Below the pieces are notes generated by a model. That model was not told where the DNA came from. It did not search any database and saw only the letters and a list, made by a program, of their open reading frames with translations. A program made the translations under genes and the position numbers. DNA of 64,000 nucleotides. Source: Escherichia coli. GTDB taxonomy: Bacteria > Pseudomonadota > Gammaproteobacteria > Enterobacterales > Enterobacteriaceae. This document shows, piece after piece, positions 2,141 to 36,798 of this stretch; the first letter of the stretch is position 1; the number at the start of each line of letters is the position of its first letter. Location of the stretch: assembly GCF_011045215.1 (NCBI RefSeq), contig NZ_CP049202.1. One strand, written 5' to 3'.

Positions 2141-2381
2141 TATTCACCCTGATGCGTCTGGCAGGATTTTTCAGTCGTTCTCTGACAATATTCAGAATAT
2201 CTTCGTCCTCATCATTATCACTGACAACAACAGACACTTCATTGAAAGGGAGTTTTTCATTTTCAGCGACATAACGGAGAAAAAGGCGGAGAGCTTCTGA
2301 AGGTGAAAGATTGAGCTTTTCGAAGACCTGCCAGGCATTTTTCTTCAGTTCTTCATCGACACGAATTTGAACAGTACTCAT
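2127..2381 (-). CDS. RelB/StbD-family antitoxin
   Basis: internal ATG at 2381 gives 84 aa (MSTVQIRVDEELKK...) with acidic C-terminus; overlaps toxin start. Confidence 0.65.
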   Translation of the reverse strand: MSTVQIRVDEELKKNAWQVFEKLNLSPSEALRLFLRYVAENEKLPFNEVSVVVSDNDEDEDILNIVRERLKNPARRIRVNIDDL

Positions 2382-3083
2382 GATAATACTCCGGTAATAA
2401 AGTATGCAGGCAGTATATACGTGAACAGATGTAATGACAAATGTATTGACATGTGACCTATGCCGCGTCAGCGGCATGGAAGGCGGCACTCCGTTGTTTC
2501 ATGTGATACTGGTGTAAAACCGCCGAAGCCCGGCGTAAGCCGGTACTGATTGACAGATTTCACCTTACCCATCCCCAGCCCTGCCAGACTATACCCGCTT
2601 TCAGCTATGAGAGAGCTTCTGTGCGCGGTCGGAGTGGTCCCGACGAGGGTTTACCCGAAGTCGGGGCGTATCTCCGCGTTAGCGGGCCGTCAGGGCCGCT
2701 TACGAGCGTGTACACGATACGTCCAGCCAGAAGACTGACAGCGATGATGATGTAGTTACAACATTCATAATTAAAAGCGACTCTGTTCCGGCCCTTTGGG
2801 CCGGGGCGGGGCCGCTTTTCAGTTATGAGGGATGGGCACGGTGTTTCAGAACTGTGTCTGTCGGGGCCCGCCGCTTGCGGTGGGAGGTGCTTTTAAATTC
2901 TGAGCGGCGCGGCTTTGGCCGCTGCAAGCGAAGGCCTTTTTGTATTTGTTCATAGACGTTTCAGAGATAAAGACTTTCCCTGCGGTGGAACAACGCAGGG
3001 GATTAAATGAAGGGGGTAAGACTATATTGCAGGTTTGCTGTTTCAGGTTTGCAGCTTCTTAAAGTTCTTTGTTTGCGGATTTA

Positions 3084-3258: not shown

Positions 3259-4287
3259 CTAGTGCGGTGGCGGGGCAGCCAGCGTCAGTTCAAGCTGACG
3301 CAACTCCCTGATGGCCAGTCGCTTCAGATGGTCATCGGAACAAAAATAGGCTTCATCCGGCGGCAGACGCTTCCTGAGATACTCTGCCATCTCATGAATC
3401 TGCTGGTCGGCAGGCAGTTTCTTCAGGCGATTAGCACGCTTACAGGCTGCAGCTTTCGCCCGACGGTGTTTCAGCGCATCCTGGCTGCGCTGCAGATACC
3501 AGCGTTTTCTGGCCGCATGTACGGAGATATCTTCATCCTCACGCAGTACACCTTCCCGGATGAGCTGCTGGCGGATTTCACTTTCACGCAGCCGCTTCTG
3601 CTGCTGTTCGTGAAGTTTAACCATATCGACGCCCAGCATCTGCCACCCTGCCGGTGTTATCCAGACATAGCGCGGCAGACGCTGGCGGGTTTCACGGTCC
3701 CACATCGTTTCTTCCGACACACCCAGCACACCAAAACGTACCTGTTCGGTCAGCAGACGGGAAAGCCGGGAGACCGTCACTTCCAGTTCCGGAATAACCT
3801 TCCCCTTGCTGTCTTTCGGGCTGATTTCTCTGGCCAGACGGGAAACACTCATGCCTACGGTATGTGTGCCCGCATCACTGAAGCTGACCAGAACCGGCCA
3901 GATGGCATCGAGGAGGCGTTGTTTTTCCGGACGGAAAGCATATTTGCGACCGGCGAACGTCCGTTTCTGCACGTAAAAAGGATGCAGAGACATGTGCATG
4001 CGCAGGCTCTGTTCGCCAGTCACCGGGTCCTTTTTCACCAGGCGGTGATAAGCGTGCCCAAGCTGCCCGCTCAGCGCCTTATAGCGCGCAGGACGATACC
4101 AGGTCGGATTTTCGCATTTGGGTTTAGTGGAGTGCTCACCACGACGACGCTTTGTGCGCTTCCTTTCCGGTTCAACCAGGAAAGTGGTCGCCCTTCCCGC
4201 TTCATAATCTTCCCAGAAACGGATTTGCTCTTCGGGAGGCAACTGAGCCCAGTGGCCTGGACGGGTATTTTTAATCACCATACCCAC
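3259..4287 (-). CDS. replication-initiator-like ORF (342 aa, basic); relationship to RepA1 unresolved
   Basis: long ORF ending at the terminator and DnaA box; overlaps the RepA1-like ORF in another reading frame; opposite-strand 430-aa ORF judged a shadow. Confidence 0.45.
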
Positions 4288-4816
4288 TCCGTAAGACAGC
4301 CAGACGTGCTTCAGTCAGCGCCAACGGAAATATCCCTAAAAACTCAAAAAAACGAGGCGTCAGCGTTATTGTGCAGCGCTTATTGTAAAAATCTGATGAC
4401 GGGGAACAGACTATAAACCCAAAATCTTCTTCCAGTGATTTAATTGCTCTGACAGCTCGCTCAATGGCTAAATGACCATGAGCATTTTTTCTGGCTAATC
4501 CGCAATCAAGTGCAAGTTCGGTTATAGAACGATGCACTTGATTTGAAACAGGATCGTAGTAGAAGCACATGCCTTGCAACAGTGCATCAATAGCTCTGCG
4601 ACGAAGAACGGAAGGCTTGCGTTTACGTTTACCATTAGCGCGCGCGCACGCAGAAGCTATATCGAATGCAAATGTTTCGGTAAACCCCACCGCTTTGCCC
4701 ATTAGCTTCTCACAGAACGGCAGCGTCCTGGCACCTTCACGGGGTGTGAATACCGGATTAGGGTTCTTTACCTGACGGTAATACGTTTGTTGAAGATCAG
4801 TCACACCATCCTGCAC
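4271..4816 (-). CDS. repA1: RepA1-like replication initiator, N-terminal region (IncFII RepA family)
   Basis: N-terminus (V)[24 protein letters not shown] and [13 protein letters not shown] match IncFII RepA1 as recalled; ORF stops after 181 aa instead of about 285. Confidence 0.55.
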
Positions 4817-4839
4817 TTACAATGCACAGAAGGAGTGAG

Positions 4840-5100
4840 CACAGAAAGAAGTCTTGAACTTTTCCGGGCATATAACTATACTCCCCGCATAGCTGAATTG
4901 TTGGCTATACGGTTTTTAGATGGCCCCGGTAATCTTTCTAGCTCGCCAAAGTTAAAGAAGATTATCGGGGTTTTCACTTTTCTGGCCCCTGTAAATCCAC
5001 ATCAGAACCAGTTCCCTGCCACCTTATGGTGTGGCCAGCCATAAAATTCCTTAAACGATCAGCAATCTATCACTCACGCCTGAGATAAGCAATAATGTGA
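4840..5100. promoter_or_regulatory. copA antisense RNA / leader-peptide control region of the RepFIIA replicon (approximate)
   Basis: position between copB and repA1 with local hairpins; boundaries not determinable by eye. Confidence 0.3.
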
Positions 5101-5104
5101 ATAT

Positions 5105-5362
5105 TCACGAAATCGCTCTGCGTTTCAGCTCTGATTCAATCAGTTTTTCAAGCATCTGCGCCTGGGTAATACCTTCCTCATCCGCCAGTTCACTCAGCCT
5201 GTCTTTTAACCGGGCCTGGATAACCGCATGAAAAGCCTTATGAGTGTTGCTTCTGCGAGCCAGAGAAGCTCTTTGTCTCTCTCTGGCCGGAACAGGGTTA
5301 CCTTTCCGGTATGCACGCTTAGTGCCTGATGAGGAAGTCACTGCATTTTCTGTCTGCGGCAT
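5105..5362 (-). CDS. repA2: CopB/RepA2 copy-number repressor
   Basis: 85 aa; [11 protein letters not shown]...[16 protein letters not shown] resembles R100/R1 CopB as recalled; sits upstream of repA1. Confidence 0.8.
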
Positions 5363-5421
5363 CTCGCCTCCTCAATACTCAAACAGGGATCGTTTCGCAG
5401 AGGATACTACAGTTTTTTTTA

Positions 5422-5558
5422 ATCAGCGACTTGAAAGTTGTGACGATGACATGTGTTGGCGCACAAATCATGTCTGATTACGACCGTTTAATGTGATTTT
5501 GATAATGAAATGACTGAAAAGCAGGAAATGCCTTAACCTGTGTGCCCCCGGGCGGGGC
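5422..5558. repeat. direct repeat copy A (~135 bp)
   Basis: near-identical to 6552..6682 (TTGTGACGATGA...GCGCACAAATCATGTCTGATTACGACCGTTTAATGTGATTT...). Confidence 0.85.
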
Positions 5559-24805: not shown

Positions 24806-25120
24806 ATGGAAAAGCGATCTTTTAAAGAAAAACTGGAAATAATCAGAAACATAATAAGAGAGTCGTTACTGGGAAATGCGGCAATTATTGCGCTGATATA
24901 TGCAGCATCACATTCATTACCGGTCAATGCCTTCCCTGACTATCTTGTAATAAGTTTATTAAGTATCGCAGCAGGCATCGTTGTATTATGGTTATTTTCA
25001 ATTATCTATATTTATTTTTGTGAGCTATTCAGAAGCCACTGGATTGCGGTATGGTTTATCATATGGTCTTCAGTAATCAACCTCATTATTTTGTATGGTT
25101 TTTATGACCGTTTTATATGA
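24806..25120 (+). CDS. artA: ArtA-like ORF, antisense to the tra operon
   Basis: 104-aa hydrophobic ORF on the opposite strand between traQ and trbA, as in F. Confidence 0.45.
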   Translation: MEKRSFKEKLEIIRNIIRESLLGNAAIIALIYAASHSLPVNAFPDYLVISLLSIAAGIVVLWLFSIIYIYFCELFRSHWIAVWFIIWSSVINLIILYGFYDRFI

Positions 25121-26504: not shown

Positions 26505-28379
26505 TTACAGTCCTGCCTGTTTCAGCTGGTCAGCAATCTGCTCTTTCACTTTCTGCGTCAGAACACCACTGTCCGGGATTTTCTGGTTATTCATCAGGTC
26601 TTCGTAGAAGTTAGTGAAATCCAGTCTGTCGAACTGAATTTTCTGCAGCTCATCAACCGTAATCCCCCGACAGTCAGGATGCTTCGCACTGCCAAAACTG
26701 ATACGCAACTGACCGTTGCGCCCCTGCTGCTGGACTATCTGCGCCAGCTTCGAATCAAACTGACAGTAGCTGCGTTTTTTCTCCAGACAGACGCCCAGCA
26801 CTTTCTTCGAACAGAACTCCCCGACGCTGACGGTCAGTTTGTTTGATTTTTCTTTAGCCAGGGCTTTTTCATCACTGCTGCATTTGGCCAGCCCGATATC
26901 CTGTCCCCAGCCGCTGTCCTTACAGCAGTTGCTGTATCCGGCTGCTGCCTTCTTACAAAATTTCGCCTGACCGGTGAAAGCACGGACATCCACCCCGTTC
27001 AGCGCCGCAATATCCTTACCTGCAGCGGCCAGTGCCGCCAGCTGAGAAACAGCTTCGGCAAAATCATTACTCTGCCCGCTCTGAGCCTTATCGCATTCGC
27101 CATCGAGACAGAAGACGTCTCCCCCACAGAGCATCACTTTCCCGGATGTTTTTGACTCACAGGAGTACGTGGCATATTCATGCAGACAGGCACCTTCTTC
27201 GGAGTAAAAGGCGCACTGGTGTGACACCAGGGTACAGGCTGGATTGTCGGTGTAGGTCTGACAGGTTCCCTTGTCTGCTGACTGTGTGACATACGTGTCC
27301 CGGTATGCCCAGCAGCTCTGGTACATGCTGTATGACTGACCGTCTTTCACCAGCGTCCTGTTCCCGCCAGCCTCCGTACATTCTGTTTTTGTCAGTTTCC
27401 CCAGCTCCTTGCTGAACGGGCAGCTTTCAGACCAGACAACATACGGGGTGTACGAGGCTTTTTTTACCCTGACAACCAGACGCAGCTTCATTGCCGTATG
27501 ACGTTTGAATTTTGTATTCCCGACCCGGACGGGGTGAGATGACGTAAAAGCCACACCGGCAGTCAGTGTTTTCTGTACTGGTGTAAATGAGGCATCTGCT
27601 GAGTATTTGGCATTCCAGCTCAGTGGGGTTCCCAGTACTGTAATTGTCATAGGTACACTCTTCTGCAGGTAAGTACGACTCCAGCTGTAATGCGCATCGA
27701 CAATTTCACCGGTAACGGGAGAGGTAATGGAGACAACATACTGACCATTCACTTCACGTGCAGGTAGCTGACTCATTTCATACTCCAGCGTCCGGGTTTC
27801 CCATGTGGTACTCCCCTGCAGCTCCATACGGGCAGTTCGTGTGCAGTACTGCTCCACCTGTAAATCCCTCTCACAGGTATAATTCGTGTATTCACTCCGG
27901 CTAATCTCCTGCGCACTGCACTGCTGCCCGGTGTTTCCCACAATGCTGTCAGCCCGGTTCACCACATCCCTGTCGGTCTGGATAAACGGTGCATCCGGTG
28001 AAAGAATGTCTTTCGGCTTGTTCATGAATGACTCTGTGATGGTTTTTCCGGTTTCACCGGTCGCCCATTCCGTGGTGCCGTCATTTTTCAGGCCGCCATC
28101 CCCGCCGGCAGTCACGCCACCGTAATATTTTGTCTCGTCCGGATTCGCGTTATAGCCGGGGATACTCTCCTGTGGCTTAAAGCCCTGAATACTGCTGCTT
28201 CCCTGTCCTTTGATCTGGTGAGCAAAATCAGAGCCGGCCCGGTAATCACTGTTGCTGTCAGCAAACACAGAAAAGCTCAGGAAAAAAACAATTGCACAAA
28301 GATTGCACGGCTTTACGGAATAATTAAAATTCAGAGATCTGAAAAAGGTATTTATCTTTTCTTTCATAACCTGAACCAT
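26505..28379 (-). CDS. traN: TraN outer-membrane mating-pair stabilisation protein
   Basis: 624 aa, signal peptide, cysteine-rich C-terminal half. Confidence 0.85.
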   Translation of the reverse strand: MVQVMKEKINTFFRSLNFNYSVKPCNLCAIVFFLSFSVFADSNSDYRAGSDFAHQIKGQGSSSIQGFKPQESIPGYNANPDETKYYGGVTAGGDGGLKNDGTTEWATGETGKTITESFMNKPKDILSPDAPFIQTDRDVVNRADSIVGNTGQQCSAQEISRSEYTNYTCERDLQVEQYCTRTARMELQGSTTWETRTLEYEMSQLPAREVNGQYVVSITSPVTGEIVDAHYSWSRTYLQKSVPMTITVLGTPLSWNAKYSADASFTPVQKTLTAGVAFTSSHPVRVGNTKFKRHTAMKLRLVVRVKKASYTPYVVWSESCPFSKELGKLTKTECTEAGGNRTLVKDGQSYSMYQSCWAYRDTYVTQSADKGTCQTYTDNPACTLVSHQCAFYSEEGACLHEYATYSCESKTSGKVMLCGGDVFCLDGECDKAQSGQSNDFAEAVSQLAALAAAGKDIAALNGVDVRAFTGQAKFCKKAAAGYSNCCKDSGWGQDIGLAKCSSDEKALAKEKSNKLTVSVGEFCSKKVLGVCLEKKRSYCQFDSKLAQIVQQQGRNGQLRISFGSAKHPDCRGITVDELQKIQFDRLDFTNFYEDLMNNQKIPDSGVLTQKVKEQIADQLKQAGL

Positions 28380-28392
28380 ACTGGAGAATGAA

Positions 28393-28614
28393 GTGATGTC
28401 ATCTCAACTTCAGAACTGTGTTGATTGTGGTAAAGCATTAAGTCGAACAGCCACAACGTGCGGGAATTGCAGCTCAACGGACCCTTTTGGAAAAAAACGG
28501 CGCAGTGATCGCTTTTACCAGTGGTTTGTAGGGCTGTTTATTACGGCTATTATTATTGCTGGCGGATTATGGTACATGGGGCTTCTTGACGTACCGGGAT
28601 TACTACTCAGATAA
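28393..28614 (+). CDS. hypothetical zinc-ribbon plus TM protein, antisense to tra
   Basis: 73 aa; CVDCG...CGNC followed by a hydrophobic helix. Confidence 0.35.
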   Translation: MMSSQLQNCVDCGKALSRTATTCGNCSSTDPFGKKRRSDRFYQWFVGLFITAIIIAGGLWYMGLLDVPGLLLR

Positions 28615-28983
28615 CGACTTCAGTAACGATATCAGTGTTCTGAAATCGGCACATAACGAGTGACGACAATACCGGTTATACCAGTAATGAGGGGTGTCGG
28701 GCTGAAGCCTGAAACAGAGCTGAAACTCACTGTTAAAAGCCCCCTTCACCGACCATCCCCATGCCAGACGTGGTATTGCTGATTCAGCATCCTGCCGCAG
28801 TCGCTGCTCAAGAAGGGCAGCCATTTTTACCGGACAGGCAAAGGCAATATAAGGAGGCAGCTTTGTAACAGGGAAACCATGTCCCTGACAGGAAGCATAT
28901 GTGCGGAAGCCGTGAATGTTCATCGCGGCCACCAGGGCACGGATCTCCGGATCAATCTGATAATACCCGGCAGGTAAAGTCAT
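28603..28983 (-). CDS. hypothetical protein encoded between trbC and traN
   Basis: 126-aa ORF overlapping the trbC stop (tra-operon style coupling). Confidence 0.45.
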   Translation of the reverse strand: MTLPAGYYQIDPEIRALVAAMNIHGFRTYASCQGHGFPVTKLPPYIAFACPVKMAALLEQRLRQDAESAIPRLAWGWSVKGAFNSEFQLCFRLQPDTPHYWYNRYCRHSLCADFRTLISLLKSLSE

Positions 28984-29636
28984 TTTTGTTTATCTCCCGG
29001 GTTATTCAGCAACGCCCGAGCCACCTGCCGGCAGTCCCCCGTGGCGGCCACTTTCTCCAGCGCCTGGCCGACCCGCAGGTTCCCCCGGATAATGTCGTAT
29101 CCCTGACTGCAGAACACCACCAGTGCCGGTACACTGCGAATGCCGTACTGTGAAAACAGCGTCGGGTCGATCTGAACACCATCAGTCGCGCCGTCTTTCA
29201 CCAGGGACAGCACGGCTTCAGCGGTGGTCTTCAGGTCATTGTTCACCATGCCCCGCAGTGTGGCGGGTATACCGTAGTGCCGGGTTTCGCCCAGCATCCG
29301 TTTCAGCCCCTCTTCGGGAATGGAAAACGACACAAAATACAGGGCACCCTGCCGGGGTTTCCCGTCCTGCGAAGCCTGCTGTTTACGAACCAGCTCATCC
29401 AGAAAATGGTTATCTGAACGCTGAAGGGGGTTTTCCAGCACCAGTTTCTCCGCCCAGGCCTTCAGCTGATGGTCAGGTTTTTCACGCAGTTGTCTGCTTA
29501 AATTTTCCTGCTGCTTCAGGAACTGGCGGTTTTCAGGAGTGTTCACATTTTCTGAGGCATGAACAGTGATATGCATCCCTGCAGTCAGGGCAAAAAGCGC
29601 AAATATTTTCCAGTTCATGATATATCCTGATGGCAT
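28980..29636 (-). CDS. trbC: TrbC periplasmic pilus assembly protein
   Basis: 218 aa with signal peptide; size and position as F TrbC. Confidence 0.8.
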   Translation of the reverse strand: MPSGYIMNWKIFALFALTAGMHITVHASENVNTPENRQFLKQQENLSRQLREKPDHQLKAWAEKLVLENPLQRSDNHFLDELVRKQQASQDGKPRQGALYFVSFSIPEEGLKRMLGETRHYGIPATLRGMVNNDLKTTAEAVLSLVKDGATDGVQIDPTLFSQYGIRSVPALVVFCSQGYDIIRGNLRVGQALEKVAATGDCRQVARALLNNPGDKQK

Positions 29637-29645
29637 TATTACAAT

Positions 29646-30098
29646 TTAATTACCCGTAGGGTTTTCTCTCAGTTTTTCTGCCAGTTTTAAAAAAGCATCA
29701 AATTCTTTCTGATCTGCACATATTTTACTGGCTGTAACCGACACGGTTATTCCTGATATGTTATTGGCAGAGTCTTTAACATCATTATTATGGACGGAGA
29801 CATTATCGGGACTGAAAATATAAACCTTTTCTCTGGGATAATCCCTGTCCACATCCTCCCGCCACTGAATCTGTTCTTTATCAAAACGGTGATACATTAT
29901 TGAGGAAAACCGGCACAGCCAGTCGTCAATGCATGACAGCTTATCCAGTAATTGTTGCGAATGACGGACCTCACTGGCAAGCTGCCGGCACTCCATAATG
30001 CACCGTGACACACCACCATTTGCATTCACAAGCGCTTTCATTTCCAGCAGAACACCCATATCAAGTATTCTGGAGCCATATTTTATATTATTACTCAT
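29646..30098 (-). CDS. hypothetical soluble protein (AT-rich cargo between traU and trbC)
   Basis: 150-aa ORF with no recognisable motif. Confidence 0.5.
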   Translation of the reverse strand: MSNNIKYGSRILDMGVLLEMKALVNANGGVSRCIMECRQLASEVRHSQQLLDKLSCIDDWLCRFSSIMYHRFDKEQIQWREDVDRDYPREKVYIFSPDNVSVHNNDVKDSANNISGITVSVTASKICADQKEFDAFLKLAEKLRENPTGN

Positions 30099-30441
30099 TA
30101 CATCCTCCTCTGTTTTTGTTTACACACTTACCTGGCATAAACGCATCAGAGCACAAATATTTAAAAAACACAGCAGCAAAAGCACACACAAATGCAGCTT
30201 TCAGATATAGCCGGACCAGAAACATTTTCCCTGACATATCTGACTGTTGCCATTCATAAATAACCTCACTGAGGACACTATCAGGAACAAAATAAAACAA
30301 TATTGCAGGTGCCATTACCAGATTAAAAGGAAACCATTTTAATGGTTCATTTATCAGCCGGATAAGCACACAACCTGTTCTTTTTAAATTATGTGTGTAT
30401 TTACTTTTTATCATCTCAATTTTCATAGATATTCCTCTCAT
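30091..30441 (-). CDS. hypothetical membrane protein (AT-rich cargo between traU and trbC)
   Basis: 116-aa ORF with hydrophobic segments. Confidence 0.45.
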   Translation of the reverse strand: MRGISMKIEMIKSKYTHNLKRTGCVLIRLINEPLKWFPFNLVMAPAILFYFVPDSVLSEVIYEWQQSDMSGKMFLVRLYLKAAFVCAFAAVFFKYLCSDAFMPGKCVNKNRGGCNE

Positions 30442-34026: not shown

Positions 34027-36672
34027 TTAACCCCAGTTTCCTGACATTCGTTCGCCGGACATTTCATGCTCTTTTAACCAGGCTTCCAGCGAAGCCATCT
34101 CCGGCCCTGACTTCTTCCACGCCAGCTGCCACACCGCCTCATGAATACTCAGGCCCTCTTTACGCTTCTGCTGCACAAACTCAAAATCCGGGCCGTCGGA
34201 GCTGTACATGGCACGGCTTAACGGGTCCACAAACAGACGGTGCCAGGAGGAATGGTTTTCCACCTGCAGCAGGAAGGAACTGAACCACTGGTCTTTAGCC
34301 GCACCAAACTTGCCAATCATGTCCCGCTGCAGTGGCAGGAACTGGTCCGGGAATAACTGGTTATATTTCGCGAACTCCTTCGCACTCTGTTTGAGGATAA
34401 TTTTGTAGGAGGAGTTACCCCATGCCGCACGGGCCGCACTGGAGGCCTTGTCAGAGTCAAAGTCGACGATGTTCTGTGTGATGGTGATATAGGCACCGGT
34501 ATGACGGCGACAGGTGCGGTAACCTTTTTGAATAAACTCACCGACTTTACGATTTTTGAAGTCCAGCAGACGCCAGCCTTCATCAATGACGTTCAGTTTT
34601 TTGAGAGTACGCGGCGTGCGGTACATCCTGTTCTCGATGTAGATAATCAGGGAGAACATCACCGCAACCAGCAGGGACGGACGGTCTTCCAGTCCACCCA
34701 GCTCCAGCACCACCATTCTGGCATCATCCCGCAGGGACGGTTCATCAGAGTTAAAATACCGGCCGTAAGTGCCGCCAGCGGTATATTGATCCAGAAGGAC
34801 AATCATTTCATCCAGACGGCTGCGGATGGTCGGAGACTCGACATACTGGTCGTTATCACGGGCGTTTTTCAGGAAATCCACCACATCATCGATGCGCGCC
34901 TTATTCTTTTTAGCCAGCCAGGAGGCCCTGACCGCCTGCAGCAGCAGACCTTCATGTACTTCATCCAGGTTACCGTTGGGGCTGGCCATCACCGACAACT
35001 GGTCACGGACACGCTCCGCTGACTGGTCAATATCAGTGATGTTCGCAAACGGGTTAAAACGCAGGGTTTCACCGTCCAGATATACGCCCCCCATGTTCTC
35101 ACACAGGGACTTGTAGCCATCCCCCATGTCGAACACCACGGCAAAGCCCCCGGAGTCCAGCACGCTGCGGATAAGTGGCTGTATCAGTCCGGTTTTACCG
35201 GCCCCGGAGGTGCCACAGACCGCCATGTTGTAGTTGGTGTTATTCATCCCCTTAAAGAAGATATCGATAAACGCCAGCTGGTTACGGTAGGTGGGCGCCA
35301 GCAGACCTGCCGGTGTCAGGGGATTATCCGCCACTAACGGCATCAGGTTGGCCACATTAAAACTCTCTGCCCGCTGTACCACTCCGGCCTCTTTCAGCTG
35401 TTTAAACAGCCCTTTCCCGGCCATAAAGGGCAGGCAGGTCAGGAAATTGCGCATGTGGTTAAAGCGCGGTGAAATCAGCTCAAAACCGTTTTTACGAAAG
35501 CTGTTCAGGATGTCCTGCTCCACTTCCAGTGCCGTTTCATTATTGTCCCTGCAGAAGGCTGTGATGTTGAGGAAGTAGGACACGACAGAAGACTGGCCGG
35601 AGCCCAGCCGCTGGCGCAGTTCCCCCCACTCCTTCGCCTCCTTTTCAACTGACGGAAACCATTTGGCATAGGAGGTCTTCGACTTTTTCTCCAGGTCCAT
35701 GTACTTCAGGTTGGCTTCGCTGTGGGTTTTCACCTGGTCTTCCACCACCAGAGTCAACGTCAGGATGAACGGGCAGGAAATGGACATTTCCGGGTTCAGC
35801 AGATTGCTGTAGTTGTCGGCCATGTTCCACAGGAAGGCGATTTCCGGGTTACGGGCCAGATGGAAATTCAGGATGCGGGCCGTGCTGTTCCTGCCGTTCT
35901 CACGCAGGCCCAGCGTCAGGTAATCAGCCCGGACTTTCAGGTCAAAACTGTCCTCCACACACTGATAATTCAGATCAGAATACGGATCCAGCTGACGTCT
36001 TTTCGGGTACAGAGAGTCCGGATTATGGTTAATCATCTCCCCGACAATCTCGATGAAAGCCTGTGCATCCACTGTCTGTGTGGTGATTTTTGCGCCGTGA
36101 AAAGAGGCACGGATGATTTTCACCAGATTTTCCATTTCCAGAATGTCAGCCCGGCTTTTTTTCTTCGAGGGAGAACAGTACGAGATAAACACCCGGTAAT
36201 GGCGCAGGGTCAGGGGCAGATTCATCCCCTCCGGCAGCGGGAACTGTGTCGCTGCCGCTTTCATATAATAGGCACGGGTAATGGCGTTAAACCGTTCAGC
36301 CTGTTCACCTGACCAGGAGAACTCACGCAGCCCGTATTCAATCCTGTCACCAACCAGCTGACTGGACATCAGATGGATACACAACGGAATACCGCGCGGC
36401 AGTTTGGTGCGCAGCATATGATCGAGAGCCTCCACAATGGACTCATTCGCACCATTGATGGGAATGGCTTCCAGCATAAAGCCCATCGTGGTGTCATTCA
36501 TGAACAGGCCGGACTCCTGGTTGTAATCACGGTACGGCAGCAGACGGCTGAACTGCGGGAAGCTCATCTCACCGAGGATCTGATTAGCCTGAGAGGATTC
36601 ATCCGGTAATTTAAGCGCAGTCAGCAGTGAATTAACCGCCTGAGTGACGGTCTCAAGTGGGTTTTTACTCAT
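34027..36672 (-). CDS. traC: TraC VirB4-like ATPase
   Basis: 881 aa; Walker A GTSGAGKT. Confidence 0.95.
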   Translation of the reverse strand: MSKNPLETVTQAVNSLLTALKLPDESSQANQILGEMSFPQFSRLLPYRDYNQESGLFMNDTTMGFMLEAIPINGANESIVEALDHMLRTKLPRGIPLCIHLMSSQLVGDRIEYGLREFSWSGEQAERFNAITRAYYMKAAATQFPLPEGMNLPLTLRHYRVFISYCSPSKKKSRADILEMENLVKIIRASFHGAKITTQTVDAQAFIEIVGEMINHNPDSLYPKRRQLDPYSDLNYQCVEDSFDLKVRADYLTLGLRENGRNSTARILNFHLARNPEIAFLWNMADNYSNLLNPEMSISCPFILTLTLVVEDQVKTHSEANLKYMDLEKKSKTSYAKWFPSVEKEAKEWGELRQRLGSGQSSVVSYFLNITAFCRDNNETALEVEQDILNSFRKNGFELISPRFNHMRNFLTCLPFMAGKGLFKQLKEAGVVQRAESFNVANLMPLVADNPLTPAGLLAPTYRNQLAFIDIFFKGMNNTNYNMAVCGTSGAGKTGLIQPLIRSVLDSGGFAVVFDMGDGYKSLCENMGGVYLDGETLRFNPFANITDIDQSAERVRDQLSVMASPNGNLDEVHEGLLLQAVRASWLAKKNKARIDDVVDFLKNARDNDQYVESPTIRSRLDEMIVLLDQYTAGGTYGRYFNSDEPSLRDDARMVVLELGGLEDRPSLLVAVMFSLIIYIENRMYRTPRTLKKLNVIDEGWRLLDFKNRKVGEFIQKGYRTCRRHTGAYITITQNIVDFDSDKASSAARAAWGNSSYKIILKQSAKEFAKYNQLFPDQFLPLQRDMIGKFGAAKDQWFSSFLLQVENHSSWHRLFVDPLSRAMYSSDGPDFEFVQQKRKEGLSIHEAVWQLAWKKSGPEMASLEAWLKEHEMSGERMSGNWG

Positions 36673-36798
36673 ATGAGTATTCCTTAGTGCGTTTAAAAAA
36701 GGAAAATATCAGTCTGTGGGCCGTGGATATATCACGCAGTGCCATTCTTAAAACCACAGCACAAATAAGAGATGGAGGCTTTTAACAGGAAAACAGGA

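Follow-up and report, generated by a model that had tools for sequence, protein, structure and literature searches.

At the junction of trbC and traN, the transfer operons of some F-like plasmids carry two open reading frames (ORFs) that face one another, and this raises the question of whether both are genes, to which protein families they belong and how they might work together. In Enterobacteriaceae, resistance and virulence genes are carried mainly by F-like plasmids. The window analysed here is a stretch of 64,000 nucleotides from Escherichia coli (contig NZ_CP049202.1), and its minus strand holds an F-type tra operon in the order traF, trbE, traN, the ORF pair, trbC, two further uncharacterised ORFs and traU. 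A record identical to the window is that of plasmid A of E. coli C5 (NZ_CP010123.1), an IncFIB/FIC plasmid with an MPF_F mating-pair system. The larger ORF of the pair, with 126 codons, reads in the direction of the operon, while the smaller one, with 73 codons, reads against it.

A probable foreign cassette at the trbC–traN junction

The original prediction stated that trbC is followed directly by traN in F, and regarded the two ORFs as cargo. That statement is correct, since trbC (78378-79016) directly overlaps traN (79013-80821) in F, and the two genes likewise abut in R100. Both the 126-aa gene and the small gene are absent from F and R100, and neither matches a tra family of NCBIfam or Pfam. 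The extent of the sequence not shared with F was set by alignment with F, an HNH-type plasmid and a deletion-type plasmid (Table 1). Over positions 28200-28700 the GC content is 0.39-0.47, compared with 0.51-0.62 in the tra genes on either side. The interval is best explained as the central part of a foreign cassette of some 0.75 kb that inserted exactly where trbC meets traN in an F-like tra operon. The arrangement of the two ORFs was also described accurately: the 126-aa ORF overlaps the trbC stop, and the zinc-ribbon and transmembrane (TM) ORF converges on it, both with exactly the coordinates given. The overlap with trbC is an ATGA on the minus strand, and the two ORFs share 12 nt at their 3′ ends.

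Table 1. Features of the trbC–traN interval and its flanking genes, with positions in the window
Feature	Position	Strand	Description
traN	26505-28367	-	flanking gene
TraN leader	28260..28367	-	cassette-borne; 36 residues, MKEKINTFFRSLNFNYSVKPCNLCAIVFFLSFSVFA, then DSNSDY; replaces MKRILPLILALVAGMAQA of F
Stretch of the trbC–traN junction not shared with F	28260..29017		approximate; right edge, in the 3′ tail of trbC, uncertain
Weak promoter-like TTGCAC-N16-TAAAAT	28303..28330	+	candidate for the small gene; inside the traN leader codons; read by hand
GGAG Shine-Dalgarno	28383..28386	+	9 nt upstream of the ATG at 28396; GGAGAATG invariant in 6 of 6 aligned copies
Small gene	28393..28614	+	73 aa with the GTG start, 72 aa with the ATG start at 28396; predicted tail-anchored zinc-ribbon inner-membrane protein, DUF2116-like
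Overlap of the 3′ ends of both genes	28603..28614	both	12 nt, dual-coding: LLR and stop on the plus strand, LSE and stop on the minus strand
126-aa gene	28603..28983	-	predicted cytoplasmic TYW3/Taw3-like protein; D11, T28-Y-A-S31-C32-Q-G34-H35; putatively translationally coupled to trbC
ATGA	28980..28983	-	trbC TGA stop overlaps the ATG of the 126-aa gene; plus strand reads tcat
trbC	28980-29618/29636	-	flanking gene

Of the two possible starts of the small gene, the ATG is the one kept in its homologues. The assignment of TTGCAC-N16-TAAAAT as its promoter is only suggestive. The -10-like element of this candidate, ATTAAAAT or ATTAATAT, is kept in the window and at loci L002 and L006-L009, and a scan places the -35 element one base away (ATTGCA, spacer 17), with a best score of 8-9 of 12. 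The consensus promoter scan gave no plus-strand site at threshold and no convincing sigma-70 promoter for the small gene. Its only hit is a minus-strand site whose -10 element is not visibly conserved among the aligned copies. A search of 27800-29300 for known RNA families returned none at E ≤ 1.

A replaced TraN leader

The 36-residue TraN leader is found in window-type plasmids and in the deletion derivative, and the 18-residue leader MKRILPLILALVAGMAQA in F and the HNH-type plasmids. In a comparison of the N termini, both leaders join one and the same mature sequence, DSNSDYRAGSDF. DNA homology with F restarts at GCT GAC AGC AAC (A, then DSN), at the codon of the Ala that precedes the cleavage site, and the sequence is identical thereafter. 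These alignments show that the cassette brought a leader that replaced the signal peptide of TraN.

The first ~17 leader codons, together with the stretch up to the ATG of the small gene, are also conserved beside the small gene at loci L006-L008. There, the start of the leader opens an upstream ORF of 64-76 aa that ends a few bases past the traG start codon. The short leader overlies the 5′ region of the small gene and is predicted to restart translation of the downstream tra gene. The conservation of the leader start next to the small gene in L006-L008 implies a three-part mobile unit, composed of the large gene, the small antisense gene and the sense-strand leader.

States of the slot and their prevalence

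The trbC–traN junction, a hot spot for cargo, occurs in at least five alternative states. In the first, represented by F and R100, trbC and traN are directly adjacent. In the second, the pSLT type, the order is trbC-HNH-traN and the 126-aa gene is missing. The third, found in about 540 plasmids of the IncFII and pKPC type, has trbC, a 123-aa homologue, an HNH gene and traN, all on one strand. The fourth is the window type (about 115-120 plasmids), with trbC, the 126-aa gene, the convergent small gene and traN. The fifth, the pTA142-3 type (L005), resembles the fourth, with most of the small ORF deleted; as this plasmid lacks the small gene yet is typed as conjugative, the small gene is dispensable. 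Altogether, the 126-aa gene is present in 713 PLSDB plasmids. Among complete E. coli genomes, 428 of 5426 (about 8%) carry it, and in 132 of these the match covers 80% or more of the cassette query; of the 457 matching places, 452 lie on plasmids.

The third state brings up the possibility that an HNH homing-endonuclease insertion brought in the 126-aa gene as its passenger and left the small ORF behind, for in those ~540 plasmids a 140-aa HNH gene on the same strand follows the 126-aa homologue and overlaps the traN start. We consider this very improbable. The HNH family occurs in 2706 plasmids, far above the number with the 126-aa gene, and occupies the pSLT-type slot by itself, which marks it as an independent cargo sharing the slot. 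Moreover, the small ORF is encoded by the opposite strand, evolves under purifying selection and has its own homologues, and an HNH gene accompanies the pair in no integrative and conjugative element (ICE) and at no traH–traG locus. A functional link between the 126-aa gene and the HNH endonuclease was rejected on the same grounds of the 2706 plasmids and the pSLT-type arrangement. The window locus itself contains no HNH gene.

Other parts of the window hold further cargo. A second cargo island separates traU from trbC and consists of a 150-aa ORF (29646-30098, minus strand) and a TM-rich ORF of 111/116 aa (30091-30441, minus strand), with a GC content of 0.35-0.45. Neither ORF of this island matched Pfam, NCBIfam or PHROG, and for the 150-aa protein PADLOC gave just a weak 'E1-E2' match (E = 7e-4). 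A related pair occupies the same traU–trbC slot at locus L013 (3450-4339), and F has nothing there. Between traC and traR, four consecutive CDS annotated as 'hypothetical protein' (35213-36746, minus strand) form another cargo block inside the tra operon. Outside the operon, an IncFII-type repA (3964-5509, minus strand) is annotated as two overlapping CDS (3964-4986 and 4976-5509), a split that points to a frameshift or to two fused rep genes.

Selection on the two reading frames

Both ORFs were compared between the window copy and L002 (92% DNA identity) and L006-L008 (76-79% protein identity). For the small ORF, dN/dS is 0.10-0.19 at a dS of about 0.9-1.4, its length of 219 nt is invariant, and it contains no internal stop. 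As a frame control, the other five frames across the small ORF were scored in the same way: four of them have dN/dS of at least 0.6, and all five contain 2-7 stops. The lone antisense frame with a low dN/dS shares its third positions with the small ORF, and has 3-4 stops. By tblastn, the small gene is intact and full-length in 119 PLSDB plasmids. For the 126-aa gene, dN/dS is 0.11-0.20 in all pairs, including plasmids without the small gene; L003 and L004, both of which lack the small gene, give 0.14 when compared with each other. These substitution patterns show both ORFs to be genes under strong purifying selection.

It could still be argued that only the 126-aa gene is real and that the plus-strand frame of 73 aa stands open in the spacer by chance. 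In favour of this, the RefSeq record identical to the window leaves the small ORF unannotated, though PGAP calls it a CDS in some records (WP_135276000.1), and the scan found no strong promoter for it. We regard this explanation as hardly credible, however, given the low dN/dS in precisely the frame of the small ORF and its invariant length. The Cys ligands and the DPFG motif of the encoded protein are retained down to 32% identity, and its homologues form ~70 clusters, always accompanied by the same partner. As far as sequence evolution goes, a chance open frame is refuted. In a Burkholderia gladioli plasmid, tblastn matched the small protein marginally (E = 5e-4); this place contains no intact ORF, has no partner gene and was taken as noise.

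A small membrane protein with a zinc ribbon

In the 73-aa numbering, the small protein has two pairs of cysteines, C9xxC12 and C23xxC26, followed by a basic patch, GKKRRSDR (net +4), and a single hydrophobic segment, for which the best 19-residue Kyte-Doolittle window scores 1.97 (residues 45-63). Among its homologues the invariant positions are, in the 72-aa numbering, C8, C11, C22, C25 and the motif S-x-DPFG, after which come a basic stretch, the TM helix and a short tail. Pfam gives a weak DUF2116 match (i-E 0.0043, 17.4 bits) and a weak Zn_ribbon match, and weak zinc-ribbon matches are all that Pfam, NCBIfam, PHROG and PADLOC together yield; the Pfam and NCBIfam models for tra families leave the protein unmatched. 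Some of the homologue clusters point the same way as the DUF2116 match, with P0192 and P0199 named DUF2116 by NCBI and P0212 and P0224 carrying a precomputed Pfam DUF2116 hit. Judged by these features, the small protein is a DUF2116-like zinc ribbon with a predicted TM anchor. By the positive-inside rule, the net charge of +4 on the flank that precedes the TM helix would place the ribbon on the cytoplasmic side.

The 126-aa protein distantly resembles TYW3/Taw3

The 126-aa protein has no significant match in Pfam (none even at E ≤ 10), NCBIfam, PHROG or PADLOC, and all its AFDB50 neighbours are labelled 'Uncharacterized protein'. Literature searches, which took in the 'Five shades of F' paper and a preprint of 2026 about the diversity of F-like tra regions, turned up neither gene. 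The original prediction had proposed a homology search and left room for the 126-aa ORF to be a known conserved tra accessory gene. It is not: in the ~700 PLSDB plasmids that carry it, it is always a 'hypothetical protein'.

An exhaustive profile search places the protein in a family of 417 clusters at 50% identity. Near-invariant in this family are D11, T28, S31, C32, G34, H35, P44, Y45, F48, W77 and D113, among others; the motif T-x-A-S-C-[QE]-G-H is present in most of the 146 representatives examined, and D11 is conserved in at least 90% of the close homologues. An AlphaFold model built on an 89-sequence alignment has a pLDDT of 92.6 and the topology alpha-beta-beta-alpha-beta-beta-alpha. 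When the profile was compared with all PDB chains, the top three matches were Taw3 proteins (best E = 0.0018). The alignment spans the Asp helix and the motif strand (vD..I..L...N....T.aSC.G[HR]), and in the three Taw3 chains D11 is matched by the Asp of YLDPDI, KVDFDI and EVDEDI. TYW3 is also the only Pfam family matched by any member, weakly and in 3 of 25 long members (best 1.7e-3).

The TYW3/Taw3 class is defined by its alpha/beta fold (SHS2 plus RAGNYA in SsTaw3), the motif (S/T)xSSCxGR and two invariant residues, an Asp and a His (Currie et al., 2017; PMC5311493). In SsTaw3, D25 contacts the sulfonium of S-adenosylmethionine (SAM) and H73 its carboxylate (PMC5311493). When the 126-aa protein is held against this definition, D11 supplies the invariant Asp, the role of the residue being taken from PMC5311493. 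Of the six specified positions in the signature motif four are kept (T/S, S, C and G), and the other two are changed from Ser to Ala and from Arg to His. H35, the sole near-invariant His of the family, lies within the motif, and a counterpart of Taw3 His73 was not identified from sequence. Nor does the protein reach the Pfam threshold for PF02676. The 126-aa protein is best described as distantly TYW3-like in its predicted fold and in what appears to be an active-site remnant, and it is not a member of TYW3.

Because the SAM-contacting Asp and most of the signature motif are kept, the protein is predicted to act by itself and probably to bind SAM or a similar nucleotide-like ligand. The invariant Cys, His and two Asp of the family would fit other chemistries too. 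Wybutosine is not known to occur in bacteria, and the Taw3 substrate, yW-86 in tRNA-Phe, is therefore not expected for the 126-aa protein. Pfam detects no recognisable fused domains in the long family members, some of which are tandem duplications. In P0049, P0088, P0131 and P0137, the family profile matches two stretches and the motif-like sequence is repeated, giving apparent tandem TYW3-like domains; this duplication hints that the single-domain proteins may act as dimers.

The pair on other mobile elements

All 12 locus types with the small gene that were examined have a TYW3-like gene opposite it, convergent and with overlapping 3′ ends, and the length of the overlap ranges over 12-99 nt across the paired loci. 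In more distant F-type tra regions (L006-L008), the pair lies between traH and traG and overlaps by 15 nt. On Serratia pE36_1, its two members are at 49% and 50% identity and stand beside a PFL_4706-type conjugative ATPase gene (ICE-type). The pair was also found at L012, in a Rubrivivax contig (L018, Betaproteobacteria) and in a Cellvibrio contig (L019), on a Pectobacterium island beside AlpA- and integrase-like genes (L017), and in an ICE region with genes for a type IV pilus, VapBC, SSB and topoisomerase III (L021/L022). Four look-ups that set out from divergent small-protein homologues (L026, L028, L029 and L030) returned an SCQGHG partner every time, with overlaps of 24-84 nt. Taken together, these loci show that the pair moves as a unit, with its convergent, overlapping layout kept across tra slots and ICEs of Gamma- and Betaproteobacteria.

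Searches seeded from the large gene gave a different picture from those seeded with the small one. About half of the distinct contexts reached in this way have no small gene (the HNH type, L014, L015, L016 and L023), and a narrower family alignment used as a seed for genome searches yielded 7 genome loci and 1 viral locus. The large gene stands without the small one together with HNH at L003, L004 and L013, after deletion at L005, and at L014, L015, L016 and L023. As the small gene is never found without the large one, and the large one is often alone, the dependence runs one way, with the small gene needing the large.

Several of the more distant loci have features of their own. In a Pantoea stewartii tra region (L014), the TYW3-like gene (2229-2699, plus strand) is convergently overlapped by a different ORF of 110 aa (2686-3018, minus strand) with three predicted TM segments, and 4 of the 146 family representatives have a fused TM segment; this ORF and the fused segments are weak hints that membrane association matters. 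At L023 (4495-5651, plus strand), the start of a 216-aa family member lies 4 nt ahead of the end of an SNase (thermonuclease) gene; Dam and C5 DNA methylases, DUF5131/GapR and a Zeta toxin belong to the same cluster, which is carried by a RepC-type replicon. An IMG/VR phage contig (L020, 3549-4428, plus strand) encodes a 225-aa relative (…NASCQGHG…) with an N-terminal extension, immediately followed by a co-directional, Cys-rich ORF of 66 aa that has no TM helix.

A proposed mechanism and its alternatives

On balance, we lean towards reading the whole locus as a foreign cassette that encodes a cytoplasmic TYW3-like protein and a membrane-tethered zinc-ribbon partner, with the expression of that partner set against tra transcription. 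In this model, the 126-aa gene would be read with the tra operon, its start coupled to the trbC stop, and the small gene would be expressed from the opposite strand with its own Shine-Dalgarno sequence. The 126-aa protein would be a cytoplasmic enzyme or ligand-binding protein that shares the descent of its fold with TYW3/Taw3. The small protein would be an accessory partner, a cytoplasmic zinc ribbon held at the inner membrane by its C-terminal helix, which may tether, sequester or modulate the large protein; a physical interaction between the two is suggested by their linkage. To reach traN, the tra transcript would have to cross the entire small gene in antisense, and for this reason expression of the small gene should be independent of, and probably anticorrelated with, tra transcription. 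The small gene would be expressed mainly when tra is silent, and its own transcription could dampen traN. At the other loci, the conserved 3′ overlap may impose the same reciprocal control on both mRNAs.

A broader and more tentative version, to which we give only a modest chance, holds that an unrecognised bacterial branch of TYW3/Taw3 and a membrane zinc-ribbon partner form a self-contained two-gene system for modification, exclusion or addiction. Such a system would be reciprocally controlled by convergent transcription and, in F-like plasmids, coupled to the on and off states of tra.

The main alternative gives the same layout a different function, that of an addiction or toxin-like module. 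Over-expression of the small membrane protein would be harmful, the pair would stabilise its element, and the check on the small protein would come either from convergent antisense transcription (of the large gene or the tra operon), as at 3′-overlapping type I toxin-antitoxin loci, or from the large protein as an antidote. At every locus, indeed, the gene for a small single-TM protein is convergent and 3′-overlapping with its partner; the finding that the small gene never occurs alone, whereas the large one often does, is the pattern that a toxin–antidote pair predicts; loss of just the small gene is tolerated (L005); and the pair at L021 adjoins a VapBC-type toxin-antitoxin locus in an ICE maintenance region. 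We nevertheless hold this to be unlikely. Most type I toxins known have fewer than 60 aa, and they lack a folded cytoplasmic zinc-ribbon domain, a type I antitoxin is a non-coding RNA and not a conserved enzyme-like protein, and the toxin models of NCBIfam and PADLOC match neither protein. The large protein is equally constrained in more than 500 plasmids without the small gene, which argues that it has a function of its own.

That function could lie in establishment or anti-restriction, with the TYW3-like protein a nucleic-acid (DNA or RNA) methyltransferase or a SAM-consuming enzyme and the small protein a local accessory. The predicted fold and the motif do relate the 126-aa protein to a class of methyltransferases that depend on SAM. 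The pairs on ICEs lie among SSB, topoisomerase III, ArdA, ArdC and AcaB genes, and the L023 member, with its 4-nt overlap after the SNase gene, shares a cluster with orphan Dam and C5 DNA methylases. F-like plasmids, however, carry the gene inside the tra operon and outside the leading region, which is the first to enter the recipient. The Arg of the Taw3 motif is not conserved, no counterpart of His73 was identified, DNA-methylase motifs and a target-recognition domain are absent, and the association with nucleases is not robust, HNH occurring in the same slot without the gene. Weighing these points, we think an establishment function quite improbable, and the preferred reading remains that of a TYW3-like protein with a membrane-tethered partner expressed against tra.

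What is new here is the recognition of both genes as members of unannotated families, the large one being, by its profile and motif, a bacterial mobile-element variant of the wybutosine-synthesis fold class. A predicted TYW3/Taw3-like fold with an active-site remnant is a first structural lead for a 'hypothetical protein' encoded in ~700 sequenced plasmids, and it places the 126-aa protein in a wider, unannotated proteobacterial family. A conserved convergent and overlapping pair is an unusual arrangement for functionally linked bacterial genes, and suggests built-in antisense control. The insertion of cargo between trbC and traN also rewrote the signal peptide of TraN, the mating-pair stabilisation protein. 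As far as we know, the TYW3 class has so far been characterised only in the archaeal and eukaryotic wybutosine pathway; if the 126-aa protein binds SAM, the class would extend to bacterial mobile elements.

Comparison with known systems

Four known systems offer points of comparison. TYW3/Taw3 proteins (PF02676; PDB 1tlj, 2drv, 2qg3, 2dvk) are about 190 aa long, so that the 126-aa protein has ~60 residues fewer; it also differs in being bacterial, in residing on mobile elements and in being paired with a membrane zinc-ribbon protein. The small protein shares with DUF2116 (PF09889, 'probable treble clef') a short N-terminal CxxC...CxxC ribbon, to which its subfamily adds the S-x-DPFG-KR motif, a C-terminal TM helix and strict linkage to a TYW3-like gene.

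The original prediction noted that antisense genes inside the tra operon are rare and named artA, the classical antisense gene of the F tra operon, as the known case. This view is upheld. In the window artA is annotated at 24806-25120 (plus strand), separate from the small gene and unrelated to its product, and the small protein was considered and rejected as an ArtA homologue when no sequence similarity was found. What the two genes have in common is that each is a protein-coding gene opposite the tra strand and inside the operon, presumably with its own promoter. They differ in that artA occupies the trbA–traQ slot and is a gene of the F backbone, whereas the small gene comes with a mobile partner and is found outside F-type systems as well.

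Type I toxin-antitoxin loci with convergent, 3′-overlapping transcripts, such as txpA/ratA and bsrG/SR4 of Bacillus subtilis, come close to the layout of the pair: they too have a gene for a small membrane protein whose 3′ end is overlapped by a convergent transcript, on mobile elements. In the pair described here, by contrast, the partner encodes a conserved enzyme-like protein, and the small protein is longer and has a predicted folded zinc-ribbon domain.
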